NCBI GenBank assembly: GCA_021836035.1
Contig: JAKBJL010000002.1
Coordinates: 3,691-67,690 of the forward strand
Direction: 5' to 3'
DNA: 64,000 nt
Source: a bacterium
GTDB taxonomy: Bacteria > Patescibacteriota > Microgenomatia > JAMCZE01
Below, one piece after another: positions 16,686-39,761 of this stretch (positions are counted from its first letter, which is position 1; each line of letters begins with the position of its first letter). Below the pieces are notes generated by a model. The model was not told the DNA's origin. It searched no databases and saw only the letters and a program-made list of their open reading frames with translations. The translations under genes and the position numbers were made by a program.

Positions 16686-16712
16686 CCCCACGGTTTACAT
16701 ACTATACCAGAT

Positions 16713-18594: not shown

Positions 18595-18616
18595 GCCGAC
18601 AGTCTATTTTATCACC

Positions 18617-20694: not shown

Positions 20695-20719
20695 ACCTTC
20701 TGCCTTAAGGTTAATTTCC

Positions 20720-21604: not shown

Positions 21605-21608
21605 GGGC

Positions 21609-22019: not shown

Positions 22020-22029
22020 TAATAATCAC

Positions 22030-22090
22030 TAATATGTACTACTTTACACTAGTTTGCCTCATTTTTCACAGAGTGTCAAGACCCATTTTC
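22030..22090 (-). promoter_or_regulatory. candidate Pmra promoter with TTGACA -35 and three direct repeats (MraZ-box candidates)
   Basis: Minus-strand ggtcTTGACAct lies upstream of mraZ. Plus-strand direct repeats catttttcaca (22051), cattttcacaa (22075) and ctttacac (22033) are spaced about 22 bp apart. Confidence 0.35.
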
Positions 22091-22117
22091 ACAAAGGAAT
22101 GCTAAAATCCGGGGAGA

Positions 22118-23972: not shown

Positions 23973-24520
23973 ATTTCTTCCAAAATTCTCCGGGTTTTAA
24001 CCCGCCTTTCGGCGATCTGTTCCACAAAATCGGTTACTCCGGTCTGCGGATACTGCCCTCTCGGGAGAAAACCCAATTCCCATAATAATTTTATAACAAA
24101 TTCCTTTGCTTTTCTCTCCGCAACCGCTCGCGGGTAGGAATGACCGGCTAAATCCCGCAGATATTTTTGAAAAGCTTCATAAACCCTATCCTGGGATACC
24201 CCTAGCGGCAGTAATTTATCGACAATCTCCGTAACATAGAATAGATAGCCGACGTTAGAAAATCCCGGACTGGTGGCAGAAATTGCCTTGCTGGTGCTTT
24301 TGACCTCGCTGGCCACCTCAAAAGTCCGGCCCTTATGTAAAATTATTTCCGCTTCATTAAACAGTTCGAGATGGGGCGCCCGGCGGCTTTTGATACTTCG
24401 TATTCCCCGGGCGAGGATTTCTATTTTCCCTTTTTCCCGGGTAAAAAGGGTAATCAGCTTATCCCTTTCGGCAATATTTTTCCTTTTCAAAACTATCCCT
24501 CTTACCTTAACGACTCTCAC
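23969..24520 (-). CDS. recO: DNA repair protein RecO
   Basis: N-terminal OB-fold pattern MRVVKVRGIVLKRKNIAERDKLITLFT and a RecO-like length of 183 aa. Confidence 0.65.
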   Translation of the reverse strand: MRVVKVRGIVLKRKNIAERDKLITLFTREKGKIEILARGIRSIKSRRAPHLELFNEAEIILHKGRTFEVASEVKSTSKAISATSPGFSNVGYLFYVTEIVDKLLPLGVSQDRVYEAFQKYLRDLAGHSYPRAVAERKAKEFVIKLLWELGFLPRGQYPQTGVTDFVEQIAERRVKTRRILEEI

Positions 24521-26430: not shown

Positions 26431-26471
26431 AAGAAATAAGGAAGTTTCATTTTAACGGATTATTTTCTATT

Positions 26472-27236
26472 TTACCATTCATTAAACATTACCAGGGGCG
26501 TTTTTATGATGATAAAAAGATCGCGCAAGAGTGACTTGCGGGCCGCATATTCCGCATCTAATTGTACTCTTCTGTCCCAGGATAATTTATTGCGGCCGGA
26601 AACCTGCCAGGGACCGCTGAGACCCGGTTTTACCGAGAGGGCAACCTTCAGCTGGCCGTTAAGCTGGGGATAAATCTTTAATTGCTCGGCAATTTCATCC
26701 CCGACCGCATCGCGCCGGTAAGCCCGGGGACCGACCATGCTCATGTCTCCGGCCAGGATATTCCAGAGGTTAGGCAATTCATCAAAGCTGTATTTACGGA
26801 TAAATCTTCCCACTCTGGTAATCCGCGGATCTTCCCCGGCATCGCCGAACTTCCAACCTTCTTTTTTCTTAAAAACCTTCATATATTGCGGATGTCCGAT
26901 TAAGAATTCGTCGGCGTCGCTGACCATGGAACGAAATTTCCACATATCAAAAATTTTTCCTCCCCGGCCGACCCTTTTGGCTTTATAAATAACCGGACCG
27001 GGAGAATCAAATTTAATGGCTATGGCAATCAGCAGCATCAGGGGAAAAAATACCAAACCGACGAGGGTTGCGGAAACTAAATCGATTACCCGTTTGGCCA
27101 GATCATAAATTTCCCCGGCGGAAACGGCGGTAACTGTCGGAGATAAAGTTTTTGAACTCGCTCCTAAAGCGATCGTTCCCGAATCTTTCGGAATTTTTTC
27201 GGCAATCCCCGGGTTTAATCCGGTCAATGTCGGCAT
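26472..27236 (-). CDS. polyprenyl-phosphate sugar-phosphate transferase (Bac_transf/WbaP-EpsL C-domain type, priming enzyme)
   Basis: KRVIDLVSATLVGL...AIKFDSPGPVIYKAKRVGRGGKIFDMWKFRSM...MSMVGPRA carry the canonical sugar-transferase motifs. The track start overlaps the upstream GT4, so the true start is probably internal and non-ATG. Confidence 0.8.
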   Translation of the reverse strand: MPTLTGLNPGIAEKIPKDSGTIALGASSKTLSPTVTAVSAGEIYDLAKRVIDLVSATLVGLVFFPLMLLIAIAIKFDSPGPVIYKAKRVGRGGKIFDMWKFRSMVSDADEFLIGHPQYMKVFKKKEGWKFGDAGEDPRITRVGRFIRKYSFDELPNLWNILAGDMSMVGPRAYRRDAVGDEIAEQLKIYPQLNGQLKVALSVKPGLSGPWQVSGRNKLSWDRRVQLDAEYAARKSLLRDLFIIIKTPLVMFNEW

Positions 27237-28209
27237 GTCTTACAATATTAACCAGCGCTTCTGGTTTTTGTTCCTCGAAAAACCACCCCGTCTTTCCCTG
27301 GATCACAGTCTCGGTTACTCCGCCCTTACCCAAAGCGATCACCGGCTTACCGAAACTCTGAGCTTCAACGGCAACGAGATTAAAATCTTCTTCTCCGGGA
27401 ATAACTACCGCCCGGCAATTATTATAATAACGGTTCCGCTCCTCATCTGTCAAACTTCCCAAGAAGTCAATATTTGTTTTCGCCAGCGCTTTTAATTTAC
27501 CTTCCTCGCGGCCGCTACCGATTATTTTTAGCGGCCAACCCAGTTGATTAAAAGCGGATACGGCGATATCTAACCGTTTCTGCGGCGCCAGGCGGGAAAC
27601 AATCAGATAAAAATCCCCCGGGGGCGACAGTTGGTCCAAAGAGCCTAAACTTTCTAATCCCACGGGCGGATAGATTACCGTGCTCTCCCGCTGATAATAT
27701 CTTTTAATCCTTAATCTTACCGTTTCCGAAATGGCCAGATAGATATCCGGGCGTTGGGCAATAATCCGGTCATACCATCTTAAATAATTTACCAAGGGTT
27801 TGGTTAGCATTTTAAAGGCGGCCGGCTTTCCGGAGAAATACTGCTCATAACCCGACCACAAATAACTTACCGGGGTAAGGCAGTAGCAGATATGCAAAGT
27901 CTGAGGTTTGGTGATCACGGCTTTGGCAAATTCGTGAGTGACGGTAATCACCAGATCGAAATCGTCTAAATTCAAAGTTTCAAAGGCGGGGCCCATTATA
28001 TATGGATAATATTCGTGTTCAGATTTGGGTAAGGGAGTATTTTGAATAAATGTTGTTCTCACATCAAATACATCAGCCCATGGTGCTCCGCTTATATCAT
28101 ACACAGAGGTGTAAAGCGGTGCTTCCGGCAGAATTTGATGCAGGGCTAATAATACCTGCTCCGCGCCGCCGAATTTATTAACCCGATCGTAAACCAACGC
28201 TGTCTTCAT
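27103..28209 (-). CDS. glycosyltransferase family 4 (GT-B)
   Basis: C-terminal GT4 EX7E region (PGEEDFNLVAVEAQSFGKPVIA). Confidence 0.8.
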   Translation of the reverse strand: MKTALVYDRVNKFGGAEQVLLALHQILPEAPLYTSVYDISGAPWADVFDVRTTFIQNTPLPKSEHEYYPYIMGPAFETLNLDDFDLVITVTHEFAKAVITKPQTLHICYCLTPVSYLWSGYEQYFSGKPAAFKMLTKPLVNYLRWYDRIIAQRPDIYLAISETVRLRIKRYYQRESTVIYPPVGLESLGSLDQLSPPGDFYLIVSRLAPQKRLDIAVSAFNQLGWPLKIIGSGREEGKLKALAKTNIDFLGSLTDEERNRYYNNCRAVVIPGEEDFNLVAVEAQSFGKPVIALGKGGVTETVIQGKTGWFFEEQKPEALVNIVRHADIDRIKPGDCRKNSERFGNDRFRSEFKNFISDSYRRFRRGNL

Positions 28210-29296
28210 AAATTTCCAGGGTTTGCCGGGCCATTTTTTGCCAGGAATATCTCTTTACCCGTTCCCTGCCCCTTGCCGCTAATTTTTTTTGCAGATCAAC
28301 ATCCCGGAGAACACGGATTACTTTCCCGGAGATATCCTGCCTGTCGCCCGGATTAAAGTAATAAGCGGCTTCTCCGTAGACTTCCCGTAATACGGGTATG
28401 TCCGAACAAACCACCGGCAACCCCGAATTCATAGCGTCCAAACCGGGTATTCCGAAACCTTCAATAAACGAGGGAAAAACATATATCCTGGCCCTGCGGT
28501 AGGCGGCCACCAACTGCGCCTCGCTTAAATAACCTAAAAAAAGAAGGTATTCCCCGGCGTTGTGTTCCTTAATTAATTGCGTAAAACGCCGGGTAAAAAC
28601 GGATCTGGCGGAACTGAAAATTAATTTTACTCCGCTTGCCCGATAAACCTCTTTCCAGGCGATAATCAGATTTTCCAAATTTTTATGGGGGTAGGCATTG
28701 CCCGTATAAATGGCAAAATTATCAGGTAAAACCAAATTGCCTAAATCCCCGTGATCTTCGGGACGGATGACGGGAGCTTCGTAAGTAACCCGGATCTTGC
28801 CGGGATTAAGCCGATACCGTCTAAATAACTCTGCTTTAACGCTTTCCGAGGGAACGATAATTTTGCCGCTGAAAAAGAGCACCCAGCGGAAGAGGAAACG
28901 GTAAACCAGATATTTAAGCCAATAAACCAGCGGTTGCCGGGTGGTCGTTGCCCGCCCCCGGGACTCGTGCTTAATAAGGTCGTGGATCGTCACTACGTAA
29001 CGCCCCAGGTAAAACAGGGGTACGTTAATGCTCGGAAAATGCACCAGATCGGGACGCAGCTTATATAATAGGTATGGCAGCAGCCACTGCTCTTTGAGGC
29101 TGTATGCCACCGCTTCCGCCTCAACCTTATGAAAATTGGCAGGCAAGTTAACCTCGCTCATCATTTCCCGCCTCAGGAGCAGAAAGTATTCATTCCGGCT
29201 ATCAATACGGGCAAGCTCATATACAAGCTCCCGGGTATAAATACCTAAGCCGGTATGCGTCGGGCCCCAAAAACGACCGTCAAGACAGATTTTCAT
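28178..29296 (-). CDS. glycosyltransferase family 4
   Basis: FPSFIEGFGIPGLDAMNSGLPVVCS is the GT4 signature. Confidence 0.8.
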   Translation of the reverse strand: MKICLDGRFWGPTHTGLGIYTRELVYELARIDSRNEYFLLLRREMMSEVNLPANFHKVEAEAVAYSLKEQWLLPYLLYKLRPDLVHFPSINVPLFYLGRYVVTIHDLIKHESRGRATTTRQPLVYWLKYLVYRFLFRWVLFFSGKIIVPSESVKAELFRRYRLNPGKIRVTYEAPVIRPEDHGDLGNLVLPDNFAIYTGNAYPHKNLENLIIAWKEVYRASGVKLIFSSARSVFTRRFTQLIKEHNAGEYLLFLGYLSEAQLVAAYRRARIYVFPSFIEGFGIPGLDAMNSGLPVVCSDIPVLREVYGEAAYYFNPGDRQDISGKVIRVLRDVDLQKKLAARGRERVKRYSWQKMARQTLEIYEDSVGLRSG

Positions 29297-30213
29297 AAAC
29301 CGAAAGAGGAAAAATACTTTTCCAGGGCAATTCCCCCGAAAACCAGACGGCTGATAAAACCGGGGTATTTATCCTGATAATGTTTCCGGTAAAAAATGCC
29401 CATCGCTTCGTAGCGGGCGTTATGCCAGAGCTTTTTGACTTCCCGGGAGGCCTTGCTCACTTCCCGTGATACTTTCTTTAAACCGCTGCTGGCTCCCCAA
29501 TAGTGAACAATCCGGACCTCCGGGTTAAACATCACTTTATAACCGAGCTGCTTTACCCGGTAACACATTTCGATATCTTCACCGTAAGAATAATAATCTT
29601 CATCAAACCAGCCGATCAGGTTGAGAATTCTTCTGCGGATCAGAAGAAAAGTGCCGGAACAGGCATCAATTTCATGGACCGTATTTAGCGGAAGATATGT
29701 CGCGGTATAACCGGAAAAAAGCTTACTGCGGGGGAAAAGCCGGGAGAGACCGGAAAAATAGCAAAGCGAGTTCCAGGGACTGGGAAAGCCGCGGTGGCTG
29801 GCATAATAAAACCTGCCGTCGGCCAGATCAACCCGGCAGGTACTGATGCCAATTGCGGTATCATCATCCATAAAAGCGACCATGCAGGGAAGAGTCTTCG
29901 GAAAAACCTTTGTATCGGAATTTAAAAACAAGACATATTCTCCGCGGCTAAAATTCCGGGCCAGATTATTGCCGCGGGTAAAACCGCAATTAAGCTTGCT
30001 CCGGACGATTTTAACCCGGGGGAAAAGACTGCCCACCATCTTTACCGAATCGTCCGTGCTGGCATTATCCACCACTATAATTTCATAATCGGGGCGGTCC
30101 GGCAGGGAGGCAAGACACTGCTCCAAAAGCTCCCGGGTATTGTAATTGAGAATTACTACCGAAAGCTTGATATTTGAGTCCTGAAAGTTAATTTCTCCGG
30201 GCGGTTTCGGCAT
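29293..30213 (-). CDS. glycosyltransferase family 2 (GT-A)
   Basis: LSVVILNYNTRELLEQCL...IIVVDNASTDDS and DxD-type GT2 motifs. The start was trimmed to MPKPPGE to remove overlap with the upstream gene. Confidence 0.75.
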   Translation of the reverse strand: MPKPPGEINFQDSNIKLSVVILNYNTRELLEQCLASLPDRPDYEIIVVDNASTDDSVKMVGSLFPRVKIVRSKLNCGFTRGNNLARNFSRGEYVLFLNSDTKVFPKTLPCMVAFMDDDTAIGISTCRVDLADGRFYYASHRGFPSPWNSLCYFSGLSRLFPRSKLFSGYTATYLPLNTVHEIDACSGTFLLIRRRILNLIGWFDEDYYSYGEDIEMCYRVKQLGYKVMFNPEVRIVHYWGASSGLKKVSREVSKASREVKKLWHNARYEAMGIFYRKHYQDKYPGFISRLVFGGIALEKYFSSFGL

Positions 30214-31399
30214 AAATGTTATCCAGGCGGCTGGAGATAACTTCCCAGTCAAAATCACGGGCGACTAATTCGTACGCTTCCCGGGAAATTCTCCCGGCTA
30301 ATTTTCGGTTGCGGATAACTTCCACCGCCATGGCGGCTAACTCATCGGGATCGTTGCTGATCAGTGCGTGAACTTTATTTATCGCCCCGATGCCTTCGAT
30401 ACCGATCTGGGTAGCTACTACCGGTAACCGGGAAGCCATCGATTCTAAAATTTTATACCGGGTGCCACCGCCTCCGAAAAGCGGGGCCAACAAAACCTGG
30501 GAAGTCTGATAAGCCGAACGGATATCTTCAATGTCCTCAGAAACCCGGATATCCAAAGAAGCAAATTTTTTAATTTCCGGAGTGGGACTTCGACCGACAA
30601 TCCAGAGGCGGGCATCCGCCATTTGTTTTTTGATCCGCGGCCAAATTTCCTTAACTAAAATCGCTACCGCTTCCCGGTTCTGCAGCCAATTAAAGTTCCC
30701 CACAAAGAGAAAAGTTCGCGCTTTTGCATCGGGCCGGTATAGCCGTTGGGAGAAAAAGAGAGTATCCACACCGTTGGGCACAATACCCACGTTTAAGCCG
30801 GGCACTAAATCGGTCATTTTCTTTTGGTCGGCTTCGGACATCGCGGCGACTTTTTTTGCTTTCCGCCAATAGTATTGCTCCCAGTACTTGTGCTTGACCG
30901 AATCGATATACAGCAGGGGTTTAAGCGACCAGAGGGGATAGAAATGCCACCAGGGGGAGGTTTCGGCATAATGCTGGTAAACCAGATATTCAATTGTCTG
31001 TTCTGCCAAAAGCACCGGAACCGGAGTTGCCGGCAGGTTCGGCATAATGTAATAAGTTTCCACATGGATTAAATCGTAATGGGTCTGATTTAATTCCCGG
31101 GCAATTCCCTCCTGAACTTTCCGGTCAAGGTACATATTGACTAAATACGGATAGAGCGAAAAGCCCGTTTTTATAATTTTCCCCGCCGAAGAAAAAGATT
31201 TATGGCGGCGAAATATCTCCACCTTTTGGCAATATTTTCTTAATTCGGCAAGGTCCGGTTCCTTTTGGTCCGTCCGTAAAAAAGAAAAGGAAGTAATCTC
31301 GTGTTTCCGGGAGAGGTTTTTTATCAAATTAAAAGTGCGTGTCTGGCCGCCGGAATTGGGCGGATAAGGTACATAAGGGGTAAACATTAAAATCCGCAT
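30188..31399 (-). CDS. glycosyltransferase family 4
   Basis: GT-B C-domain APLFGGGGTRYKILESMASRLPVVAT. Confidence 0.8.
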   Translation of the reverse strand: MRILMFTPYVPYPPNSGGQTRTFNLIKNLSRKHEITSFSFLRTDQKEPDLAELRKYCQKVEIFRRHKSFSSAGKIIKTGFSLYPYLVNMYLDRKVQEGIARELNQTHYDLIHVETYYIMPNLPATPVPVLLAEQTIEYLVYQHYAETSPWWHFYPLWSLKPLLYIDSVKHKYWEQYYWRKAKKVAAMSEADQKKMTDLVPGLNVGIVPNGVDTLFFSQRLYRPDAKARTFLFVGNFNWLQNREAVAILVKEIWPRIKKQMADARLWIVGRSPTPEIKKFASLDIRVSEDIEDIRSAYQTSQVLLAPLFGGGGTRYKILESMASRLPVVATQIGIEGIGAINKVHALISNDPDELAAMAVEVIRNRKLAGRISREAYELVARDFDWEVISSRLDNIYAETARRN

Positions 31400-31405
31400 A
31401 AACTT

Positions 31406-34400
31406 TTAATCGGGGAGTAAATTATCCGGAACCAATTGGATAATGACGTATTGATCGGTTCTGGCCAGCAGGATATAGGGGTGATTAATATCGACGGGGC
31501 TGGATCCCCCCGCCGGTCGGGACCGGGCGATCAGCCGGTTAGTTAAATCGTCAAATTTCACGCTGACATAATAATCTGCCCCCTGGCTGATCATCTCGTC
31601 AATCGGTTTTTCCACAAGCGGCCAGCCTTTAAGGCCCGTCTGGTATAAAAAGGCGGTATCCCCGTCATAGGGGGCGATCGCCAGGGCTTTTTCGTGTTTT
31701 TGCTCCACCAGAGACCAGAGCTCCCGTCCGGCGGCAACTATTTCCGGATGGTTGATGTTATATAAATCCCGGACGAAGTACCAGCCGAAACCCAACATAA
31801 AAAGCGCGGCGACAAATCCTAAGGGTAGTGCCACAAATTTCTGCAAAAACTGATCGCCGCTAAAGAGGAGATATTCCAAACCACTGCCTACCAGAATTGA
31901 AAGTGCCGGAACAATAAGGATCTGATAATAATCATGCCGGACATTGCCGGTGGCAAAAATAACCAGATATAAAACGGAGGCAAGGAAAAGTACCAGCGGA
32001 AAGAAGCGGTAGCGGCCGGAGTATTTGCGGATAAGCCCCAAACCTACCAGAACCAGGCCCCAATATCCCAGAATTAACCTGCCTATCCGATCCGCAAAAA
32101 GCCAGTACCAAAAAGCGCCTTTAAACCTGATCCCGTCACCGTTTAACAGCCAGGAATTGGCCGGAATTCCTTCCGGAAATTGGTTCATCCAAAGGCGCCA
32201 GAGAACCAGGGGAACCGCTGCCAATACCAATCCTCCCGCTAAATAAAATAAGTTTTTTACTCTCCCCCGTTTCCAACTGGCAACCATTAAATAAGCAATG
32301 GGAATCAGGAGAAAAACCGCGAAGGGTTTTACCAGTAAAGCCGTAGAGGCAAAAAACGCCGCTAAAACCACATACCGCCAGCGGTATTCTTCCAGATATT
32401 TTATGCTCCACCAAATCGCTCCCAGGGAGAGCGCCACCATCAAAGTATCCGGCAAAACAGTTCTCCCGTAGTAAATACTATATGGCGTAAAGGAGTAGGC
32501 AATAGCTGTCAGGTAAGCGATACGGCGATTTAAAATTTTCCGGCAGATCAGAAACAGCAAAAGGGCTGCCGATACTGAAGCCAAAGCCGTAGTCGCTCTC
32601 CCCGCCTCCTCAACAGAAAATTCGGGAACCAGTTTAAGCATTAAAACCGAGGCGGCGTTATATAAAGGAAATTCCACGAAACGCCATCCTTGCGGATTGG
32701 GTTTACCCGAAGGGACGGAAGAGATATCTTCAAAAGTCGGGTAGAGCCAATTAATACTTCCGGCGCGGACAAAATCGCGGGTAACCGCGGAGGTGTCCGC
32801 CTGGCGCCAGGAATGCCAATCCGCTAAAGGACTGGCTAATTTATATGTGCGTATAGCAAAAGCTACCAGCAATATAAGAGTAAGCCAGAGGAAATCGGAG
32901 AGGAAAAACCGCCAGATTCGTTGCCCGTATTCCCGCCAGGGTATTTTTAACCTCAGGGGCTGGTAATCCGCGGTAATTTTATCCCGCACAAGATATAGGC
33001 TGCCCATGGTTATTCCGGCGATTCCCCAGAAGACATAAGCGACTTTACTGGCTTCAAAGATATCAATATACATGGCATTGACCAACAAACCGCCGACCAA
33101 GCCGATAAATCCGGCACCTAGCGAATATAAAAAGGGGTCTTTAATTCCCCCGAGGGATTTGAAAGTCAAAATCGCCATGATTAACAAGGTACCGAAAAAG
33201 GCGGCAAACCCCAAAAAGCCGGTTTCCCCTAAAGCGCGCAGATAGTCGTTGTCCGTTGATTCCGCTTCCGTAAATTCGTACTTCGTAGTTTTGGTTAAGG
33301 TGGCATACCCCGTTCCCAACAAAGGATCGGTCGTAAACCCTTTAATCGCCCGCGGCCAGGTAGCGTCAAAACGGATACCGGTGGAGAGATCGTACATCAG
33401 GGCGTTTTGCGAATAAGTCCGCTGCTTCGGCACCAGAATTTTTTTACCGCTGGCTGAAGTGGTCGCCACCAGGAGGGGAATTTCTTTTCCGGTCACATCG
33501 CTGGGTTTTTGCCCCGGCTTCAGGGTACTCGGCGGCTGATCGGTTTCGGAAGTTACGGCAGCCAGGTTGTTTTCCAAAAAAAACGCTTTATCGGTCGGGC
33601 GGCTTTTTGCCGGGCTTAAAAGTACTTGCCGCAGGCCTTCAACGCGATCGGAAATTTTTAAGAGATGAAGGAAGCGTTCGGAAAGGTCGCCGAAGGAAAG
33701 CATGACAAAAAGGGAAAGAAAAACGACGGTTAGCCACCTGCTAATCCCCCATCCGACACCCCGCCGGTACATCCAGAGAAATACGACTATCGTTACGCCG
33801 CAAAGATAGGCGGCAAAGGAAATCCGGGAGGCGGTTAATATTAACAGCCAAAAACCTCCGCTGACCAAAAGCGCGATTATTAACTTGGCCCAGCGATTGG
33901 GCGCTCCGAAATAAAAACTCCAGCCTAAGGTCAGGGCGATAACCAAATAACCCGCCAAATCGTAATGACCGCCGAAAGTGGACAAGACCCGGGCATGCTC
34001 CGTAAGATAAAGCCACCAGCCCTTGGAAAATTCCCGGTTCATCGTGGAAAAAGCCGGCCAATAAAGATATTTCTGCCCGTAACCGTAAATAATCACCGCG
34101 GCCATCGTCAGGAAAAAGAGCCACAGGAAAACGCGCGCCGATTTCAGGGATCTTATGGAGCTAAAAAGAATAAAAAATAAGGAAAAATATTCGACGCGGC
34201 GTAACCAATGCAGAAAAGTCTTGCCCGCATGCAGATATTCCAGGGGGACCGTCTGTAAAATAAAGATCGCGGCAATTACCGAGAGAAAACCGAAAAAAAG
34301 GTAAGTAAAAAGGCCGGCCACCACGGGACTGAGATGAAATAAGACCTTGCGGCGCAAAAGCTGAACGATATAAAACAGGAGCGTTCCTGCGACGAATAAG

Positions 34401-34552
34401 TCCTCCAGACGGGCCCGGACGATATATCCGGGTATCACATCAAAAAGCGGCCACTTGGGATATAGCGGAATAAATACCAGTAAAAAACCGGCTAAAACCG
34501 GAAGAAGATTGTTATCCAGCCAGGAAAAAATACGGCGCATTATTGAAACCAC
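31406..34552 (-). CDS. 1048-aa fusion of an O-antigen ligase/polymerase (Wzy_C) domain and a GT39 (ArnT/PMT-like) GT-C glycosyltransferase domain
   Basis: The N-terminal half has about 12 TM helices and a Wzy_C-like loop (ASRISFAAYL...DNDYLRALGETGFLGFAAFF). The second half starts a new polytopic domain with an acidic motif after its TM1 (WRQAD) and a soluble C-terminus. Confidence 0.55.
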   Translation of the reverse strand: MVSIMRRIFSWLDNNLLPVLAGFLLVFIPLYPKWPLFDVIPGYIVRARLEDLFVAGTLLFYIVQLLRRKVLFHLSPVVAGLFTYLFFGFLSVIAAIFILQTVPLEYLHAGKTFLHWLRRVEYFSLFFILFSSIRSLKSARVFLWLFFLTMAAVIIYGYGQKYLYWPAFSTMNREFSKGWWLYLTEHARVLSTFGGHYDLAGYLVIALTLGWSFYFGAPNRWAKLIIALLVSGGFWLLILTASRISFAAYLCGVTIVVFLWMYRRGVGWGISRWLTVVFLSLFVMLSFGDLSERFLHLLKISDRVEGLRQVLLSPAKSRPTDKAFFLENNLAAVTSETDQPPSTLKPGQKPSDVTGKEIPLLVATTSASGKKILVPKQRTYSQNALMYDLSTGIRFDATWPRAIKGFTTDPLLGTGYATLTKTTKYEFTEAESTDNDYLRALGETGFLGFAAFFGTLLIMAILTFKSLGGIKDPFLYSLGAGFIGLVGGLLVNAMYIDIFEASKVAYVFWGIAGITMGSLYLVRDKITADYQPLRLKIPWREYGQRIWRFFLSDFLWLTLILLVAFAIRTYKLASPLADWHSWRQADTSAVTRDFVRAGSINWLYPTFEDISSVPSGKPNPQGWRFVEFPLYNAASVLMLKLVPEFSVEEAGRATTALASVSAALLLFLICRKILNRRIAYLTAIAYSFTPYSIYYGRTVLPDTLMVALSLGAIWWSIKYLEEYRWRYVVLAAFFASTALLVKPFAVFLLIPIAYLMVASWKRGRVKNLFYLAGGLVLAAVPLVLWRLWMNQFPEGIPANSWLLNGDGIRFKGAFWYWLFADRIGRLILGYWGLVLVGLGLIRKYSGRYRFFPLVLFLASVLYLVIFATGNVRHDYYQILIVPALSILVGSGLEYLLFSGDQFLQKFVALPLGFVAALFMLGFGWYFVRDLYNINHPEIVAAGRELWSLVEQKHEKALAIAPYDGDTAFLYQTGLKGWPLVEKPIDEMISQGADYYVSVKFDDLTNRLIARSRPAGGSSPVDINHPYILLARTDQYVIIQLVPDNLLPD

Positions 34553-35148
34553 CTCGCTCTTCCCAGGCGGTAATTTAGATCCCGATTTTTCCTTTCGCTG
34601 ATTTTCACCGCCGGGACACCCCCCACAACGGCAAAGTCCTCGATATCTTTGGTTACCACTGCTCCCGCGCCGATGACCGCTCCCCGCCCCACATGCACCC
34701 CCGGTAAAATTATCGCCCGCGGCCCGACAAAAACATAATCCCCGATGACGACCGGTTCTTCAATAACTTTACCGGCCCCGGCAAAATCCGCCTCCTGGAT
34801 ATTATGCTCGCTGTTGTAAATTAAGACCTGAGAGGCGATATCCACATGGTTGCCGATAGTTAAAGGCGCCCGTCCGTCCAGAAATACATGATCGCCGATA
34901 AGCGAATCGTTGCCTATTTTTATCCCTTGCGGCTGATAGAAACGGGCATAAGTATGGATCGTGCTGCCCTCGCCGATCTGCATACCGGCAAGGCGATAAA
35001 AGAAACGGCGGAGATGATGGAGCGGTATCCCGCCCACCCAATAAAGCCACATCAGACACCAATCAAGCCAATAATTAGCCAGCCGCTTTTTAATCTTCGG
35101 CCAGGCCGCCGCAAAGGATAGTTCCCGTCCGTATTTATCTCTAAACAT
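34540..35148 (-). CDS. hexapeptide-repeat (LbH) acetyltransferase, WcaF/NeuD-like
   Basis: IGDYVFVGPRAIILPGVHVGRGAVIGAGAVVTKDI are left-handed beta-helix hexapeptide repeats. Confidence 0.7.
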   Translation of the reverse strand: MFRDKYGRELSFAAAWPKIKKRLANYWLDWCLMWLYWVGGIPLHHLRRFFYRLAGMQIGEGSTIHTYARFYQPQGIKIGNDSLIGDHVFLDGRAPLTIGNHVDIASQVLIYNSEHNIQEADFAGAGKVIEEPVVIGDYVFVGPRAIILPGVHVGRGAVIGAGAVVTKDIEDFAVVGGVPAVKISERKNRDLNYRLGRARWFQ

Positions 35149-35156
35149 ATTTTGCC

Positions 35157-36305
35157 CTACCCCTTAGCCTCAATTAATATTTCCAGAGCCTGTTTTGCTG
35201 CTACTTCCCAATTATACCGTTTTGCCTGGCGCAAACCCAACTTAATCCTTTTTTGGCGTTCCTGCGGGGAAAGGTTAAGTACCTCCCGCAGCCGCAGGGT
35301 AATTTCGTCCGTTTGCAGGGGATTTTGAATAAAAATAGGCGCCGGGCCGCAGATCTCCGGTAAGCTGGTAACCCGCGATACAACCAGGGGAACCCCGGTA
35401 GCCATCGCTTCTACGGCCGGGATACCGAAACCCTCGTAAAGACTGGGCAAAAGATAAGCCTGGGACCCGGCTAATAATAGCGGCACGTCGGCGTCGCTGA
35501 CAAAACCGGTAAAGATTACCCGGTCGTTAAGCTCCAGCTCCTTAACTTTACCGAAAATCTGGCTGTACATCCATCCGCCCCGCCCTTCCCGGATCATCCC
35601 GGCGACCACCAGCCGGACATTTTTATCTTCCAGTTGCTTAAAAGCTTCAATCAGGCGCACTAAATTTTTCCGTGGCTGCAGGGTACCTAAATAAAATAAA
35701 TACCTCTCGCCGGTCCGGTACTTTTCTTTTACTTCCCGGATTTTTTCCGTTTGCCCGGCTACCTGCGGGTTAAAACGGTCCCGGTCATAGCCGGGATAAA
35801 CTACCCGAACTTTGTCTTCGGAAAAACCGTATTTTTCCAGGATGGCTTTTTTGCTGAATTCCGAAATCGTGAGGATTTTCCGGGCGAATTTAGCCGAGAG
35901 CAGAGTCCAATATTTTAACTGGTAGTAGTCCTTTTTCTTAAAATACTGCGGAAAAACCGTAAAAGACAGGTCCATAACGGCAATAACGGAGGGCATCGGA
36001 CAAATTAAAGGAGCGTAATGGGTGGGGGTGAAAAAGAGATCCGGCGCCCTGCCGCTAAATTTCGCTTTTAAAAGCTCTCCCTGTAGCGTAGTTAAAGTCC
36101 ATAAATTTCCGCCCGGCAGCACTTGGTAGAGCCAATTGCCGGTTTCCCGCGGCATGTCCGGTAAGGGAGCTTTTTCTAAATAGACACAAAATCGCAGCGC
36201 CGGTGTGGCTAACCGCCGCAGCCCCTTAAGCAGTTCATAACCGTACTGGCCGATACCGACGCGGTGGGTTACGTTGGCTTCGTTGCCGTTAATACCGATG
36301 ATCAT
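35157..36305 (-). CDS. glycosyltransferase family 4
   Basis: LPSLYEGFGIPAVEAMATGVPLVVS. Confidence 0.8.
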   Translation of the reverse strand: MIIGINGNEANVTHRVGIGQYGYELLKGLRRLATPALRFCVYLEKAPLPDMPRETGNWLYQVLPGGNLWTLTTLQGELLKAKFSGRAPDLFFTPTHYAPLICPMPSVIAVMDLSFTVFPQYFKKKDYYQLKYWTLLSAKFARKILTISEFSKKAILEKYGFSEDKVRVVYPGYDRDRFNPQVAGQTEKIREVKEKYRTGERYLFYLGTLQPRKNLVRLIEAFKQLEDKNVRLVVAGMIREGRGGWMYSQIFGKVKELELNDRVIFTGFVSDADVPLLLAGSQAYLLPSLYEGFGIPAVEAMATGVPLVVSRVTSLPEICGPAPIFIQNPLQTDEITLRLREVLNLSPQERQKRIKLGLRQAKRYNWEVAAKQALEILIEAKG

Positions 36306-37465
36306 TTATATTCCAGACGGTAAAGATTAAGCTTACCCAGTTTCCATGACCGGGAAACACGGACGGGTTTAAAGGCAGCTACTTCGTAGGTTCTATTATA
36401 AAGAACTTCCGCCGGTTCGGCAAAAGAAGTAACGTACAGATGGTCGGCAACGGCATATTCTCCGACCCCTAAGGGATTGGTTCCCGCCAGCTCCAGAAAA
36501 TAGCGGTAAGAGGTCGCCCGGGTATCGCTATCGGTAAAAGAGGCGATGTTAAAATTTAAACCGTTTTTCTGGTCAGCGGCAACCAGGGCGCACAAACGAC
36601 GGATATTTGCGGGATTCACGGCGGGCTGCGGCACTTGCCTGCCCAGCCAGAGCAAGCTCATGACCAGCGAGCCGGACACTGCCGCCAGACCGATTTTACG
36701 GTCCAGCTTACTTAAAAGCAGCGCCAGAACGGGCAATAAAGCCAGAAAATAATGGAAATTAAACCCGCGGTAAGCAGTATCTGCCTGAAGCAAACCCCAA
36801 TATCCCCGGAGATATAAAAAATTATGCCGTAAATCAAAAATAAGAAGCGGCGCAATCCCGACCAAAAAACCGCCCAGGATTTTGGCGATATTTTTCCGGC
36901 CGCCGGCAAAAATCAGCAGGGGCGCCAGGGCAATTGTCGTAATATGCAATTGAAACGCCAACCCCCCAAAGATACCCGCCAGAAAATATTTTTTCCTAAA
37001 AAACGCCAGCAGAAAACCGGCCGCGAAAAGAGGGATCGTGTTGGGATTCCAGGCCCAGCGGTTATAGATTACCGCCAGGGGAAAAACGGCATAAAAAGCC
37101 GCCGAAATTAAACTCCGGTTGGTAAAATAGATCAGCAATACCGTCGCCACCCCCAACAACGCCGTCCAATAATACGGACCGATCGGATCAAAACGGGAAA
37201 CGGCTAAAGCCGGGGCCATTAAATAATAATGCAGGGGCCCGAAGTAGATAATCTTATTGCCGATTTTGGTTTCCGGTCCCAGAAGCGTCAGTTTGTGTTT
37301 TAGTACCATCTCTCTTTCTATCAGGCTGTCCCGGGCTTCATCGTAATGAAAACCGGCCAGCTCCGAAAGCCGATAAAAACGCAGGAAAGAGGCGAGAAAA
37401 AGGACCAGGGCTAATGCTAAAATGGTGCGGATGGGCAAACTGATACTAGCCATCTCCTTACACAT
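36302..37465 (-). CDS. GT-C fold membrane glycosyltransferase (ArnT/PMT-like, acidic motif FHYDEA after TM1)
   Basis: About 10 TM helices. A DE motif sits in the first extracytoplasmic loop. Confidence 0.5.
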   Translation of the reverse strand: MCKEMASISLPIRTILALALVLFLASFLRFYRLSELAGFHYDEARDSLIEREMVLKHKLTLLGPETKIGNKIIYFGPLHYYLMAPALAVSRFDPIGPYYWTALLGVATVLLIYFTNRSLISAAFYAVFPLAVIYNRWAWNPNTIPLFAAGFLLAFFRKKYFLAGIFGGLAFQLHITTIALAPLLIFAGGRKNIAKILGGFLVGIAPLLIFDLRHNFLYLRGYWGLLQADTAYRGFNFHYFLALLPVLALLLSKLDRKIGLAAVSGSLVMSLLWLGRQVPQPAVNPANIRRLCALVAADQKNGLNFNIASFTDSDTRATSYRYFLELAGTNPLGVGEYAVADHLYVTSFAEPAEVLYNRTYEVAAFKPVRVSRSWKLGKLNLYRLEYK

Positions 37466-38747
37466 TCTACTCCTTTCTGCCCTGAAATTTACCGCCTGGC
37501 CGGAGGATTTATTATGGCCTTACCTTAACCTGCACGGGTTAAATTATTACCGGGAAATATTTTTGCTCTACCCCCCGCTCTACTGGTTAAGCCTGACCGT
37601 TTTTCTTAAACTGGCCGGCTTATCGATACTTTCCCTAAAAATTGCCACTTATGCAGTCGTGATTGCCACCGACCTATTGCTTTGGCGGGCAGCTTCCCGT
37701 AAATTGCTCCCGGTGCTTTTCTATATTCCTCTGCAGATATTTTTTGAAGGCAACGGTTTATGGGTAGACCAGCTGCTGGCCCCCCTTCTTCTGGCCGCTT
37801 ATTTGTTTTACCAGCGGCGGAGCTTCTTTTTCAGCGGAGTTTTTCTAGGTTTAGCCCTTATGTCCAAACAAACCGCGCTTTATTTCCTCATGGTCACGGG
37901 CTTAATGCTGCTTTCCGCTAAACCTTTTGCCCTCTCCTGGTTTAAATTCTTGGGCGGTTTGTTCTTCACCCTTTTGGTTATTATCGGCTATTTAGCTTTT
38001 AACCGGGAATTGGCCGGTTTTTTTGACAACGCCGTTATTTACGTTCTCTTCTTTCTTTCCCGGCAACCCTTGCGGGTGCAATGGCCGTCCCCCGGACAAG
38101 CTCTTACGGTTCTAATCGTTGTGCTGCCCGTCGTCTTAACTTTTTGGAAAAGATCTAACCGCTCCCTGGCTTTATTGACCGTTAGCGCGGCTCTGGGAGC
38201 TTTCAACCGCTTTGAATATTTTCATCTGCAGCCGGCCTTGCCGTTTTTAGCCCTTTATTACAATAAAAACAGGAGGGCTGCTTTTCCTCTTTACGCGCTT
38301 TTTTTGCTTTTATTTTTACGCTTCTTTCTTTTTAATTGGGGTATGGAAAACCGTTTTTTTACTGCGGATATTACGGCAAACGCGAAAAAGCTTACGACCT
38401 ACCTTAAGCCGGGGGAGCAAACGTTAATTATCAACACCTGGGATCATTATTATTTTTTAACCCAAACGCGCCCCCTCAACCGCTATTTTGTTCCTTCCAC
38501 CCCCTGGAGCCTGGATTACGACGCTATCCAGGAAAAGATCGCAAAAGGCATCAGGCGCTGCCGCCCCCCGACCATCGTTTATAATCCCTGTTTTGCGGTG
38601 GGTAAATCCTGTTATTTTCCCGCCGCCGTAGATAAAGAGATCCGGGAAAATTACCGGGAAGTTTCAAAATTGGCCGATGGGACCGGTATTTTTCAATATA
38701 ATCCAATGGGTTTGCCGCAAAAAGTCCAGACCGAAAATTGTCAGTAA
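37422..38747 (+). CDS. polytopic membrane protein, GT-C-like, on the opposite strand
   Basis: 441 aa and highly hydrophobic, with a WPED motif after TM1. It is the only plus-strand gene in the cluster. Its ends overlap the neighbouring minus-strand ORFs by 44 nt (start) and 84 nt (end). Confidence 0.5.
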   Translation: MVRMGKLILAISLHILLLSALKFTAWPEDLLWPYLNLHGLNYYREIFLLYPPLYWLSLTVFLKLAGLSILSLKIATYAVVIATDLLLWRAASRKLLPVLFYIPLQIFFEGNGLWVDQLLAPLLLAAYLFYQRRSFFFSGVFLGLALMSKQTALYFLMVTGLMLLSAKPFALSWFKFLGGLFFTLLVIIGYLAFNRELAGFFDNAVIYVLFFLSRQPLRVQWPSPGQALTVLIVVLPVVLTFWKRSNRSLALLTVSAALGAFNRFEYFHLQPALPFLALYYNKNRRAAFPLYALFLLLFLRFFLFNWGMENRFFTADITANAKKLTTYLKPGEQTLIINTWDHYYFLTQTRPLNRYFVPSTPWSLDYDAIQEKIAKGIRRCRPPTIVYNPCFAVGKSCYFPAAVDKEIRENYREVSKLADGTGIFQYNPMGLPQKVQTENCQ

Positions 38748-39761
38748 TAAATATACCGCCAGGATAATATAACTTTTGTAACTTTTCCCGACCGCCGTGG
38801 CGTAAATCATAGTTATCCCCGGGAGAGCCAGGGCCAAATAGTAAGAAGACATATGCCCGGGAAGAAAATAAAAAGGCAATCCGGCGGTAAGAAACCAGAG
38901 AAGGCCCAGTAGAAATAAGCGCGGGTCATAACGTTTGCGGAAATAGGTATAAAGATTAACCGCCATTAAAATTAAAAATACAGCCAGCAGCAGATAAATA
39001 ACGGGGCTGTCGGGGTTATTCCTGATTCCTTCCGGTAAATCAAAAACCCGCAAGAGATACCAGCGCAGGGTGCCCAAGACCTGGAAATTGAATTTTAAAG
39101 TATAGTCCGCTACTTTCGGGAAGCCGATAAAAATAACCCGGAAAAATAAAAGGAGTCCGTCCAATAACCAAAATCCTGCTAACTTTTGCCGGTTCCCCTC
39201 TCTTAAATACCAGCTGCAAAGAGAAAAAATCGCCGGCAGAACAAAAGCCATTTCGTTGCTGCCCAAAGCCAAAAGAAACATGAGGAGACATAAAACCACA
39301 AAGACAAATCCCTGAAGGAGAAAAAAATAAATTGCGCCGAAGAAAAATAAAGCGCCCAAACTGAAATAAGAAGTGGCTATCCAGTAGAATTCGGCAAAGA
39401 GGGAAATATTTAAGGCATAAAAAAAGACCGCGCTGAGGGCCTTATTTTCTTCTCTAAATAATATTTTCATAATCCGGAAAAGGAAAAACAAACTACCCGC
39501 AAAGGCAAAAAACAAGAGCAAATGGTAACCCACAGGATTATTTCCAAAGAGAAAATTCCCCAGGGAATAAAAAACCTGGATCGCAATCGGCCGGTAGGGA
39601 AAGTGCGGTATGGCGGTAAAAACACCCGTCGTTTGAGCCAAACGCATCAGTATTCTGTCATCCTGAAAAAAGCGGGAGGTAAAAGAGTCGCGGTAAATAA
39701 AGGCTACCAAAGAAACCAGGACAAAGAGGCGGACTTGTGGAAATTTAAACCAATTCTTCAT
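38664..39761 (-). CDS. polytopic membrane protein, GT-C-like (FFQDD motif after TM1)
   Basis: 365 aa with about 10 TM helices. Confidence 0.5.
   Translation of the reverse strand: MKNWFKFPQVRLFVLVSLVAFIYRDSFTSRFFQDDRILMRLAQTTGVFTAIPHFPYRPIAIQVFYSLGNFLFGNNPVGYHLLLFFAFAGSLFFLFRIMKILFREENKALSAVFFYALNISLFAEFYWIATSYFSLGALFFFGAIYFFLLQGFVFVVLCLLMFLLALGSNEMAFVLPAIFSLCSWYLREGNRQKLAGFWLLDGLLLFFRVIFIGFPKVADYTLKFNFQVLGTLRWYLLRVFDLPEGIRNNPDSPVIYLLLAVFLILMAVNLYTYFRKRYDPRLFLLGLLWFLTAGLPFYFLPGHMSSYYLALALPGITMIYATAVGKSYKSYIILAVYLLLTIFGLDFLRQTHWIILKNTGPIGQF

Follow-up and report, generated by a model that had tools for sequence, protein, structure and literature searches.

A natural fusion of a WaaL/Wzy-superfamily module and an ArnT-like GT-C module in a conserved glycan operon of Microgenomates

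In Gtr-type decoration systems (GtrA/GtrB/GtrC; streptococcal GacI-L) a GT-C enzyme adds single sugars from an Und-P-sugar to the growing or finished polysaccharide outside the membrane, and the GT-C has no physical link to the polymerase but is a protein of its own. In WaaL two Arg residues bind the phosphates of undecaprenyl diphosphate (Und-PP), and the position of the ligase His is occupied by His in the O-ligases, by Asp or Glu in the Wzy-type polymerase families and by Asp in SEDS (PMC10920833). The only described bimodular enzyme of the WaaL/Wzy superfamily is WadA from Brucella/Mesorhizobium, which combines a GT121 O-ligase with a GT25 for the addition of the last core sugar and has been interpreted as coupled action (PMC10920833). 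A paper describing the fusion of a Wzy-like with an ArnT-like module was not found in the literature. Such a fusion is described here from the Patescibacteria (CPR), whose cell envelope is almost unknown biochemically.

The fusion gene is located on the reverse strand (31406..34552, (-)) of the 64-kb stretch of DNA that was analysed (the window), and can be read without internal stop as 1048 aa from a GTG at 34552 to the TAA stop at 31408-31406. The public gene call (P0001) is the identical protein with 1044 aa and ATG 34540 as start; this ATG overlaps the stop of the upstream acetyltransferase gene as TAATG and is likely the real start. An earlier interpretation of this DNA, the sequence-only reading, had proposed a Wzy_C and an ArnT/PMT-like domain in one 1048-aa membrane protein and had asked for an internal stop or frameshift, for a single family covering the whole protein and for the same fusion in other genomes. 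The ORF is unbroken, the Pfam search returned two families (Wzy_C and PMT_2, both above their cut-offs) instead of one across the protein, and the fusion recurs in 27 species genomes and in over 100 protein clusters. As the two genes stay separate in most other Microgenomates, a frameshift or a lost stop in assembly or sequencing might have joined them falsely. However, the identical protein is present on 7 contigs from public assemblies, of the 120 best protein clusters (49-100% identical) nearly all measure ~1000-1060 aa and most contain both domains, and a single ORF spans the linker in each of the 27 species genomes, so that an artefact is effectively refuted. The ORF is confirmed as one real, intact membrane enzyme of 1044–1048 residues from an uncultured Gottesmanbacteria-type bacterium of the Microgenomates.

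The AlphaFold (AF2) model of the whole protein has a mean pLDDT of 79.5 and, together with Foldseek, gives two separate GT-C folds, one WaaL-like and one ArnT-like, which agrees with the two independent catalytic modules that had been expected from the letters. The N-module (residues 1-522; 32987..34552, (-)) comprises 12 TM helices with a large loop (288-436) between TM9 and TM10, in which the stretch 288-354 has low pLDDT, and was assigned to the WaaL/Wzy superfamily (GT-C_B, CAZy clan GT-C1). The N-half modelled alone reached a pLDDT of 83 and a pTM of 0.84, and its best Foldseek match was WaaL (7tpg_B, E 8.6e-8, TMt 0.64), followed by FtsW and RodA with TMt 0.57. Wzy_C (PF04932) matches residues 233-453 (33194..33856, (-)) with 42.6 bits against a gathering cut-off of 31.7. 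This match takes up 221 residues on 144 model positions, and the ~77 extra residues lie within the large TM9-TM10 loop.

The N-module keeps both Und-PP diphosphate-binding Args of WaaL as judged from the alignments. R243 (codon 33824..33826, (-)) is the equivalent of EcWaaL R215 and CmWaaL R191 in a direct HMM alignment. R394 (33371..33373, (-)) corresponds to EcWaaL R288 and CmWaaL R265, and D434 (33251..33253, (-)) stands at the position of the ligase catalytic His (EcWaaL H338, CmWaaL H313), where these two equivalences come from Pfam model coordinates used as a ruler and from motif matching, the hhalign probability being 2-4% with single-sequence targets. The motif around R394 reads 'STGIRFDATWPRAIKGFTTDPLLGTG' versus 'SVGVRLKIWHIGLQYFSEHPWTGVG' in CmWaaL, and that around D434 reads 'ESTDNDYLRALGETGFLG' versus 'EHAHNDIVEAASTTGIPG' ('STDNDYL' versus 'HAHNDIV'). 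R243, R394 and D434 are invariant in 44 fused homologues. In a wider set of N-halves R394 and D434 are still invariant, and R243 drops out of the 90% listing, although the consensus 'LTASRxSF' still has it. R439 and E443 are further invariant charged residues at canonical active-site positions, and all conserved residues of the N-module are found within loops that are predicted to face outward. H196, E174, D198 and D497 are also invariant and outward-facing and could have a share in catalysis, which counts against the mechanism that we propose below.

The Asp in place of the ligase His is a Wzy/SEDS-type polymerase signature, which is an empirical family pattern and does not prove that the enzyme polymerises. 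The label 'O-antigen ligase' used in the sequence-only reading is thus not the best one, as the ligase-defining His is exchanged for an invariant Asp as in Wzy and SEDS polymerases; most likely the N-module is a Wzy-like polymerase, with a ligase being less likely. The structural comparison also offers an observation that speaks against a polymerase, since the closest solved structure is WaaL, a ligase, although the matches contained no Wzy structure for comparison.

The C-module is preceded by a basic linker (residues 523-551; 32900..32986, (-)) which is delimited by the stops of split loci and by AF2 and is predicted to be cytoplasmic. The domain boundary had been placed at about 560 aa, which is slightly late, as the natural gene splits fall at residues 524-549. 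In the AF2 model a second polytopic domain (553-931) is followed by an alpha/beta tail (936-1048). The membrane domain of the C-module (residues 552-931; 31760..32899, (-)) has an ArnT/PMT-like GT-C_A fold according to Foldseek and Pfam. With the whole protein as query the best Foldseek match was ArnT (5F15, E 3.2e-8, TMt 0.61), followed by STT3, DPY19, ALG9, AftA, PglB and Pmt4. PMT_2 (PF13231) matches residues 637-785 (32198..32644, (-)) with 67.2 bits against a gathering cut-off of 26.1. The PMT model proper (PF02366) gave no match to the fusion protein at E<=1 and is found as a precomputed match in some homologues only; at the same threshold no Pfam family besides Wzy_C and PMT_2 was obtained and hence no MIR domain. 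In the designation 'ArnT/PMT-like GT39', GT39 is only the NCBI name for PMT_2 matches; the best structural match is ArnT (GT83), and GT39 and GT83 are both candidate families. In the CAZy table both GT39 and GT83 are GT-C_A families that use lipid-P-monosaccharide donors.

The second half had already been noted for its acidic loop-1 motif and its soluble tail, and both were recovered. The motif 'ADWHSWRQAD' extends from D578 (32821-32819) to D586 (32797-32795) at 32795..32821 (-), both Asp residues are invariant in the 44 homologues, and the motif is specific enough to retrieve 564 loci. In a manual motif alignment D586 aligns with EcArnT D31 just past TM1. E627 in 'RFVEFP' (32672..32674, (-)), likewise invariant in the 44 homologues, was aligned with the Glu of EcArnT 'RYFEKP' by hhalign at low probability supported by motif matches, and in the same low-probability alignment the Lys next to the Glu is a Phe here (F628). 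In CmArnT the Glu-Lys pair of 'YFEKP' is E84/K85. The invariant charged residues of the C-module at canonical active-site positions are D578, D586, R624, E627, K742, H873 and D874. The soluble alpha/beta tail (residues 932-1048; 31409..31759, (-); pLDDT 81-94) would lie outside the membrane, in a position comparable to the C-terminal periplasmic domain of ArnT.

The apparent lack of the ArnT phosphate-binding Lys in the C-module and the missing ligase His in the N-module could mean that one of the modules is a non-catalytic scaffold or a substrate-binding partner and that the protein has a single enzymatic activity, and the segments 169-192 and 795-810, which contain invariant or nearly invariant residues, are modelled with low confidence. 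However, neither half looks degenerate because both carry many invariant charged residues in predicted outward loops, densely placed at canonical active-site positions, and both halves persist as separate full-length proteins under the same conservation. We therefore regard a scaffold as very doubtful.

The gene order around the fusion is that of a Wzx-type pathway, with all genes on the (-) strand. Directly upstream lies a WcaF-type polysaccharide O-acetyltransferase gene (34540..35148), which is translationally coupled to the fusion by the TAATG overlap. In nearly all related loci whose sequence extends to that side it adjoins the fusion directly or nearly so, often separated from it by a single GT2 gene. 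Downstream a GT4 gene (30188..31399) starts 6 nt past the stop of the fusion in a conserved position. It is followed by the conserved downstream part of the operon (24517..30258; annotation and synteny), which encodes a GT2 (29293-30258), two GT4 enzymes (28178-29296 and 27103-28209), the initiating polyprenyl-phosphate hexose-1-phosphate transferase (PGT; 26472-27236) and a DUF4012 membrane protein (24517-26430). The upstream part (35157..46105; annotation and synteny) encodes a GT4 (35157-36305), a variable island of polytopic membrane ORFs (36302-39761), a GT4 (39745-40896), a stand-alone PMT_2 GT-C (40893-42185), a GT2 (42185-43012), a GT4 (43009-44088), a GT2 (44085-44903) and a Wzx/MOP flippase (44879-46105) on the same strand as the PGT. 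In total the operon comprises the PGT, six GT4, three GT2, the WcaF-type acetyltransferase and the MOP flippase, and the gene order around the pair is conserved across the class. In one locus (L085) a Wzx gene directly precedes a relative of the N-module. Among the annotated ORFs of the window no second Wzy_C protein was present, which speaks for the mechanism favoured here. A clear polyprenyl-phosphate-sugar synthase or GtrA-like flippase could not be recognised in the window. A chain-length regulator was not recognised (the function of DUF4012 is unknown), and no lpx or waa genes were seen in the window; Patescibacteria are not known to make LPS. The failure to recognise a chain-length regulator, a polyprenyl-phosphate-sugar synthase or a GtrA-like flippase and the apparent Phe at the ArnT Lys of 'YFEKP' are observations that speak against the mechanism favoured here.

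With respect to the carrier of the glycan, the protein might instead be a prime-and-ligate enzyme like WadA, in which the C-module would take one acceptor sugar from a polyprenyl-phosphate donor and attach it to the final carrier, be it a surface or S-layer protein, a pilin, a glycolipid or peptidoglycan. The N-module, as a terminal ligase or O-oligosaccharyltransferase, would then transfer the completed Und-PP-linked glycan en bloc to that sugar. Several points agree with this: WaaL is the top structural match of the N-module and the only strong one, the Wzy_C motifs around both Args are WaaL-like, PMT-type GT-C enzymes glycosylate proteins, and the ~9 cytoplasmic GTs together with the class-wide gene order fit one defined large oligosaccharide and a conserved acceptor. 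WadA is also a precedent for a ligase joined to a GT that adds an acceptor sugar (PMC10920833). The invariant Asp instead of the ligase-defining His and the operon, in which no acceptor protein gene is conserved, argue against it. O-oligosaccharyltransferases of the PglL type also use the ligase His, which adds to the objection, and we consider this reading possible, but doubtful.

Relatives of the pair are widespread. A relative was found in at least 564 GTDB species genomes, and the adjacent gene pair occurs across the Microgenomates. The order of N gene and then C gene holds in every one of the 74 complete loci; 27 of these are fused, and the other 47, from other Microgenomates genomes, carry the two genes side by side as separate ORFs. 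The stops of the split loci fall in the linker at query residues 524-549 (e.g., locus L080). Fused, same-frame and different-frame states have changed into each other multiple times in loci from many candidate phyla. The architecture had been called uncommon, which has to be qualified: the single-ORF form is confined to Gottesmanbacteria-type genomes, but within these genomes fusion is the rule, and the pair itself is widespread. The fused form is a derived state that arose in this lineage when the two genes of the widespread pair merged.

It could be argued that the modules have separate substrates and share only their expression, for example a polysaccharide that is polymerised by one of them and proteins that are O-glycosylated by the other in the manner of PMT, so that the fusion would have no mechanistic meaning. 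The other stand-alone GT-C proteins in the window, i.e., the PMT_2 protein at 40893-42185, another PMT_2 protein at 46053-47519 and a DUF2142 protein at 47503-49068, fit this. In 40 of 150 representative clusters, moreover, the N-module family is fused to an unrelated C-terminal part that has extra TM helices and a metallophosphoesterase-like domain, which fits it as well. However, the strict N-then-C adjacency in many candidate phyla through multiple state transitions makes it quite improbable, and even where the GT-C gene is tandemly duplicated (L070 and L079) it still adjoins the N gene. The functional coupling of the two modules is supported because the N-then-C order is found in every complete locus, and the fusion therefore marks the two genes as working partners in a conserved glycan pathway of the cell envelope. 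The general idea of the sequence-only reading, an Und-PP-glycan transferase coupled with an outer-face GT-C, is supported by the class-wide adjacency and the repeated fused and split states.

The best explanation, which we hold at slightly less than even confidence, is a Wzy-like polymerase coupled to a GT-C that adds one sugar outside the membrane; for this we infer the donors and acceptors, the polymerase role and the location of the tail. The PGT, the GT4 and GT2 enzymes and the acetyltransferase of the operon would build an undecaprenyl-diphosphate-linked oligosaccharide that is flipped by Wzx, and both active sites of the fusion would face the outside of the cytoplasmic membrane. There the N-module may bind the flipped Und-PP oligosaccharide via R243 and R394 and, with D434 as base, move the glycan en bloc onto a sugar hydroxyl, most likely as polymerisation of repeat units like Wzy. 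The C-module (residues 552-1048), with its loop-1 Asp D586, would transfer one sugar from a polyprenyl-monophosphate donor onto this glycan, and the sugar would then either form a side branch or serve as the acceptor needed for the next transfer. In the Gottesmanbacteria-type lineage a stop was presumably lost in the linker, which would have joined the genes and fixed a 1:1 stoichiometry and proximity. The ~9 cytoplasmic GTs are many for a repeat unit, and this observation counts against polymerisation, as it could mean one large oligosaccharide that needs ligation only. In an unlikely extension, the pair and the operon would make a Microgenomates-specific core envelope glycopolymer, comparable in function to teichoic acid or a secondary cell-wall polymer, which the ArnT-like module would prime or anchor on the final carrier (peptidoglycan, S-layer protein or pilin); if true, it would be an undescribed polymerise-and-attach machine from two GT-C classes.

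The fusion flags the conserved-order operon as a likely source of a core surface glycan. It is a natural single-chain construct of a Wzy/WaaL-superfamily enzyme and its GT-C partner that could aid structural work on the coupling of Und-PP-glycan transfer with outer-face glycosylation, and the invariant exchange of His to Asp amid WaaL-like motifs is a test case for the distinction of ligases and polymerases. The public names ('glycosyltransferase family 39 protein', 'O-antigen ligase family protein' and 'Dolichyl-phosphate-mannose-protein mannosyltransferase') each cover only one half of the fusion and are probably inaccurate in their details.

In comparison with known systems, the N-module shares with WaaL (GT121; Cupriavidus metallidurans 7TPG and E. 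coli) the 12-TM GT-C_B fold with its long outward TM9-TM10 loop, the Wzy_C signature and both diphosphate-binding Args within closely similar motifs. It differs in D434, which replaces the acceptor-activating His (Cm H313, Ec H338), in the ~77-residue insert of the outward loop, in its Patescibacteria-type host with LPS genes not seen in the window and in being fused to or paired with a GT-C_A enzyme. An assignment as O-antigen ligase sensu stricto (GT121) is disfavoured, as the catalytic His is replaced by the invariant Asp. The Arg pair and the Asp at the ligase-His position are shared with the Wzy polymerases (inverting clan GT-C1, GT125-GT129) and with SEDS RodA/FtsW (GT119), for which one or two Args and an Asp or Glu are characteristic (PMC10920833). 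Like Wzy, the N-module is encoded in a Wzx-containing heteropolysaccharide operon with an initiating PGT, and RodA/FtsW are its second-best structural matches; its sequence is nearer to the Wzy_C/WaaL motifs than most Wzy proteins would lead one to expect, and a chain-length regulator was not recognised. The C-module resembles ArnT (GT83; 5F15/5EZM) and bacterial and eukaryotic PMT (GT39) in its GT-C_A fold and its PMT_2 match above the cut-off, and ArnT in the Asp after TM1, the C-terminal soluble domain and, by the low-probability alignment, probably the Glu in 'R-x-x-E-x-P' (ArnT 'RYFEKP'). In that alignment it has Phe for the Lys of 'FEKP', and its loop-1 motif is family-specific. For a GT39 protein O-mannosyltransferase, the model PF02366 (PMT) itself gave no match at E<=1, and neither a donor synthase nor an acceptor for the transfer of mannose from polyprenyl-P-mannose to Ser/Thr was identified. 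With Gtr-type systems our reading of the C-module has the concept of outer-face single-sugar addition by a GT-C in common, although the neighbourhood of the fusion gene revealed no equivalent of GtrB or GtrA. As in WadA, an Und-PP-glycan transferase is joined to a second glycosyltransferase of the same pathway; however, the lineages are unrelated, and the partner is a polytopic GT-C that is expected to use an outer-face lipid-phosphate-sugar instead of the globular GT25 of WadA. A WadA-type ligase (GT121 + GT25) was therefore rejected, the second module being PMT_2/GT-C_A, and WadA serves as an analogy only.

The open reading frame at 31406..34552 on the minus strand runs without interruption and encodes 1048 amino acids from a GTG start, from which residues are numbered here. 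In the identical public protein (P0001) the start is placed at the ATG at 34540, giving 1044 amino acids, and this codon shares bases with the stop of the acetyltransferase gene upstream (TAATG). As the next gene starts only 6 nt past the TAA of the fusion, the fusion gene lies within a tightly packed, translationally coupled operon. The sequence-only reading had proposed that a Wzy_C and a PMT-type domain are joined in one protein, and this was borne out: the protein matches exactly two Pfam families and not a single one over its whole length, each above its curated cut-off, Wzy_C at residues 233-453 (42.6 bits, cut-off 31.7) and PMT_2 at residues 637-785 (67.2 bits, cut-off 26.1). The Wzy_C match spreads 221 residues over only 144 model positions and thus contains about 77 extra residues. 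No NCBIfam model names the protein specifically; the search yielded only an Agl23 match that is weak and far under the cut-off.

Among 5.8 billion proteins searched, 939 relatives were recovered. Identity is 49-100% for the best 120 of these; nearly all have a length of about 1000-1060 aa, and both Pfam domains are present in most. The source names given for them are Patescibacteria, Microgenomates or Gottesmanbacteria, and the annotations read 'glycosyltransferase family 39 protein', 'O-antigen ligase family protein', 'Dolichyl-phosphate-mannose-protein mannosyltransferase' or 'hypothetical'. The identical protein is present on seven contigs of public assemblies. By these contigs, the full-length relatives and the occurrence as a single ORF in 27 related loci, an artefactual joining of two genes through a frameshift or misassembly is effectively excluded.

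Relatives were also scanned for in one genome per GTDB species, and at least 564 species genomes contain one. Both halves are present in 74 of the 79 best loci, always with the N-module (residues 1-522) before the C-module (residues 552-1048). The same fusion, a single ORF across the linker, is found in 27 of these 74 complete loci, which are the closest relatives, and all fused loci with an informative name are labelled Gottesmanbacteria. Two separate genes are present in the other 47, from lineages including Woese-, Curtiss-, Beckwith- (complete genome CP011210), Pace-, Roizman- and Chisholmbacteria. In a metagenomic example of the split state (L080) the order is acetyltransferase, GT2, Wzy_C gene, PMT_2 gene, with a 22-bp gap. 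The halves are in different frames in 28 split loci and in the same frame with a stop in 19, and in every same-frame locus a stop maps to query residues 524-549, i.e., to the linker. Stop-codon readthrough or recoding in these loci was considered and rejected, as the stops are ordinary TAG or TAA codons in the linker (checked in L032 and L034) and the same-frame share (20 of 48) is not clearly higher than the third that chance would give.

The fusion arose from a gene pair that is itself conserved. Such a Rosetta-stone pattern, fused in some genomes and an adjacent pair in others, argues strongly for joint action of the two enzymes; that the two modules instead serve independent substrates appears improbable. 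Of the earlier claim that the architecture is uncommon, one part stood and one did not: as a fusion the arrangement is lineage-specific, but as a gene pair it is widespread among the Microgenomates.

Among 1.84 billion cluster representatives, an exhaustive search without profiles gave 2768 matches. Of the best 150, 43 are stand-alone N-halves, 53 are stand-alone C-halves, and 40 have the N-half attached to another kind of C-terminal part. In this sister architecture (P0137, P0142-P0146, P0169, P0173; locus L085, 8001-11801) the same Wzy_C-like N-module, about 40-45% identical, is combined with 4-6 additional TM helices and with a large soluble region, which is Metallophos-like in P0145; some members have a terminal TM anchor, and the gene in L085 lies directly behind a Wzx gene. 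Two genomes carry a tandem duplicate of the GT-C partner gene right behind the Wzy_C gene (L070, 9065-11850; L079, 11538-14320). A GT2+GT-C fusion (P0130, 799 aa; L084, 819-3218) was considered as a donor-synthase/user pair and rejected, as it occurs on one 4.6-kb contig and the Wzy_C gene is absent; this gene is gone from between the extra GT2 and the GT-C gene, and P0130 is probably a deletion variant.

When searched against PDB sequences the family profile gave no match even at E<=10, and therefore structural comparison was needed. The AlphaFold2 model of the whole protein (mean pLDDT 79.5) contains an N-module of 12 TM helices (residues 2-521) with a large loop between TM9 and TM10 (residues 288-436), a basic linker (residues 523-551), a second polytopic domain (residues 553-931) and an alpha/beta tail (residues 936-1048), the last agreeing with the soluble tail expected earlier. 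In Foldseek against the PDB the top match of the whole model is ArnT (5F15, E 3.2e-8, TM-score 0.61 on target), with further matches to the GT-C_A enzymes STT3, DPY19, ALG9, AftA/AftD, PglB/AglB and Pmt4, and the sole Wzy_C-type match is WaaL (7TPG). For the N-half alone, a second model that drew on divergent stand-alone homologues (pLDDT 83, pTM 0.84) matches WaaL (E 8.6e-8, TM 0.64), then the SEDS polymerases FtsW and RodA (TM 0.57), and had no Foldseek match beyond these three. The expected two independent modules are thus present, one WaaL-like and one ArnT-like, and in the nomenclature of PMC10920833 the fusion consists of a GT-C_B module (clan GT-C1) and, behind it, a GT-C_A module. By helix count in the model and by analogy to WaaL, the C-terminus of the N-module and the linker are probably cytoplasmic. 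This is the placement that the first helix of the C-module needs for its loop 1 to be outside, so that both active sites should face outward.

Across 44 full-length homologues many charged residues are invariant in each half; those of the N-half are all located in predicted outward-facing loops, and in a more divergent set of N-halves (36% mean column identity) most of them are still invariant or almost so. That one module is a mere pseudo-enzyme partner of the other seems quite improbable, even a little more so than independent substrates. As hhalign of the half-profiles against single E. coli WaaL or ArnT sequences gave only 2-4% probability, it was replaced by the Pfam Wzy_C coordinates as a common ruler (E. 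coli WaaL 205-354 = model 6-146; fusion 233-453 = model 6-149), by HMM alignment and by motif comparison. Residues R215, R288 and H338 of E. coli WaaL correspond to R191, R265 and H313 of the Cupriavidus metallidurans enzyme. R243 is aligned directly onto R215 by the family HMM, whereas the Pfam ruler and position-by-position motif matches place R394 on R288/R265 and D434 on H338/H313 ('ESTDNDYLRALGETGFLG' vs 'EHAHNDIVEAASTTGIPG' for D434/H313). In WaaL the two arginines bind Und-PP by its phosphates, and the histidine activates the acceptor (PMC10920833). At the position of this histidine, inverting Wzy-type polymerase families have Asp or Glu, SEDS proteins Asp and ligases His (PMC10920833). 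The N-module keeps equivalents of both diphosphate-binding arginines and has an invariant Asp in place of the ligase His. This half, labelled 'O-antigen ligase/polymerase' earlier, therefore lacks the defining residue of the ligases, and from the alignment the Asp tilts the assignment toward a polymerase, without proving it. The outward loop between TM5 and TM6 (residues 163-198, about 33959-34066), 'WPAFSTMNREFSKGW.LYLTEHARVLSTFGGHYDL', is among the most conserved stretches of the protein, with E174, R188, H196 and D198 invariant. Its residues 169-192 have low confidence in the model of the whole protein, and no counterpart was identified in WaaL; the loop may be mobile and serve catalysis or substrate binding.

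In the C-module the acidic loop-1 motif noticed before is confirmed as an invariant 'ADWHSWRQAD' (D578 to D586), and D586 aligns with the Asp after TM1 of E. coli ArnT. E627 in 'RFVEFP' aligns with the Glu of ArnT 'RYFEKP'; this alignment is weak, the motif is clear. The GT39 label is doubtful, as the PMT (GT39) model proper has no match in the protein and the closest structure is ArnT (GT83). By score, fold and key residues the fusion belongs to the Wzy_C/GT-C_B and PMT_2/GT-C_A superfamilies.

The same-strand glycan region around the fusion extends from about 24.5 kb to past 63 kb of the window. Along the plus strand it runs from DUF4012 and an EPS-type polyprenyl-phosphate hexose-1-phosphate transferase (PGT) through GT4, GT4, GT2 and GT4 to the fusion, followed by a WcaF-type acetyltransferase (AcT), GT4, three polytopic membrane ORFs, GT4, a stand-alone PMT_2, GT2, GT4 and GT2, then a Wzx/MOP flippase, a weak PMT_2, DUF2142, an epimerase and GT4, and finally MBOAT, UDP-sugar dehydrogenase and epimerase genes, and others. 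No second Wzy_C protein was detected among the annotated ORFs of the window. The core order GT4-GT2-PMT_2-GT4-GT4-AcT-(GT2)-N-C-GT4-GT2-GT4-GT4-PGT-DUF4012-RecO (24517-44903) is kept in almost all long loci among L002-L079, in all the split lineages named and in Gottesmanbacteria. O-antigen and capsule loci, in contrast, are usually variable in gene order, and the conserved order therefore suggests that the operon makes a core envelope glycan. For DUF4012, enrichment in CPR and Gram-positive bacteria and a link to CPS/EPS clusters had been noted before (PMC6744442).

On the same strand, adjoining the glycan region, 13721-24520 holds recO, a class II tRNA synthetase fragment and downstream cell-wall/division genes (mraW, an ftsI-type PBP, three Mur ligases). 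The extra GT2 between the acetyltransferase and the Wzy_C gene, present in most related loci, is absent from the window and its closest relatives. A variable island (36302-39761), common only to the closest relatives L002-L004 and L020, is inserted between two conserved GT4 genes. Its three polytopic membrane ORFs (36302-37465, minus; 37422-38747, plus, with a weak PMT_2 match at E 0.58; 38664-39761, minus) have no Pfam match above threshold. The middle one is on the opposite strand in the window and L020, and co-oriented and placed elsewhere in L002-L004, which indicates local rearrangement. Beside the Wzx gene are two more GT-C-like membrane proteins, a weak PMT_2 match (46053-47519; 24.8 bits, just below cut-off) and DUF2142 (47503-49068); if the island ORFs are counted as candidates, up to six or seven membrane proteins of GT-C type or similar to it may be encoded in the window. 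The edge of the region has an MBOAT-family membrane O-acyltransferase (52156-53667) and, behind it, a 325-aa protein (51176-52153) with one N-terminal TM helix and no Pfam match, and the two look like a DltB/AlgI-type glycan O-acylation pair. Many MAG records with the operon (L001-L006, L026, L028 and others) are titled 'uncultured Gammaproteobacteria' or 'uncultured Pseudomonadales', and L039 'Limisphaerales'; these look like placeholder or mis-binned taxonomic labels.

As a whole, we tentatively favour, at slightly less than even confidence, a Wzy-like polymerase combined with single-sugar addition by the C-module on the same glycan. The operon enzymes would build an Und-PP-linked oligosaccharide, which Wzx would flip; R243 and R394 would bind the diphosphate and D434 would activate a sugar hydroxyl, and the N-module would polymerise the units in the manner of Wzy. 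At the outer face, the C-module would add to this glycan a single sugar taken from a polyprenyl-phosphate donor, as a branch or as the acceptor sugar. Searches of PDB and NCBIfam pinned down no polyprenyl-phosphate-sugar synthase among the GT2s of the cluster: these have generic EpsD-like matches, and their similarity to DPMS, ArnC and GtrB is weak. One of them (42185-43012) has a single C-terminal hydrophobic helix and is paired with the stand-alone PMT_2 gene, which is not decisive for a synthase role. A possible but less likely alternative follows WadA, the only described bimodular precedent (PMC10920833): the final carrier would receive the acceptor sugar from the C-module, and the N-module would ligate the finished glycan to it; such a ligation would have to proceed with Asp at the ligase-His position.

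The merging of two enzymes of the same pathway is in itself unsurprising. The fusion is a useful lead through its operon of conserved order, its ligase-like motifs with a polymerase-like base and the poorly known CPR envelope. Full-text literature searches turned up no account of Wzy_C and PMT_2 as a fusion or as a gene pair, and this bimodular arrangement of two known GT-C classes is previously undescribed. The relation of the C-module to ArnT is structural, and one motif residue is absent, as the Lys next to the Glu in 'RYFEKP' is Phe in 'RFVEFP'. WadA joins its ligase to a GT25 that adds the last core sugar (PMC10920833), whereas here a GT-C_B module is joined to a GT-C_A module.
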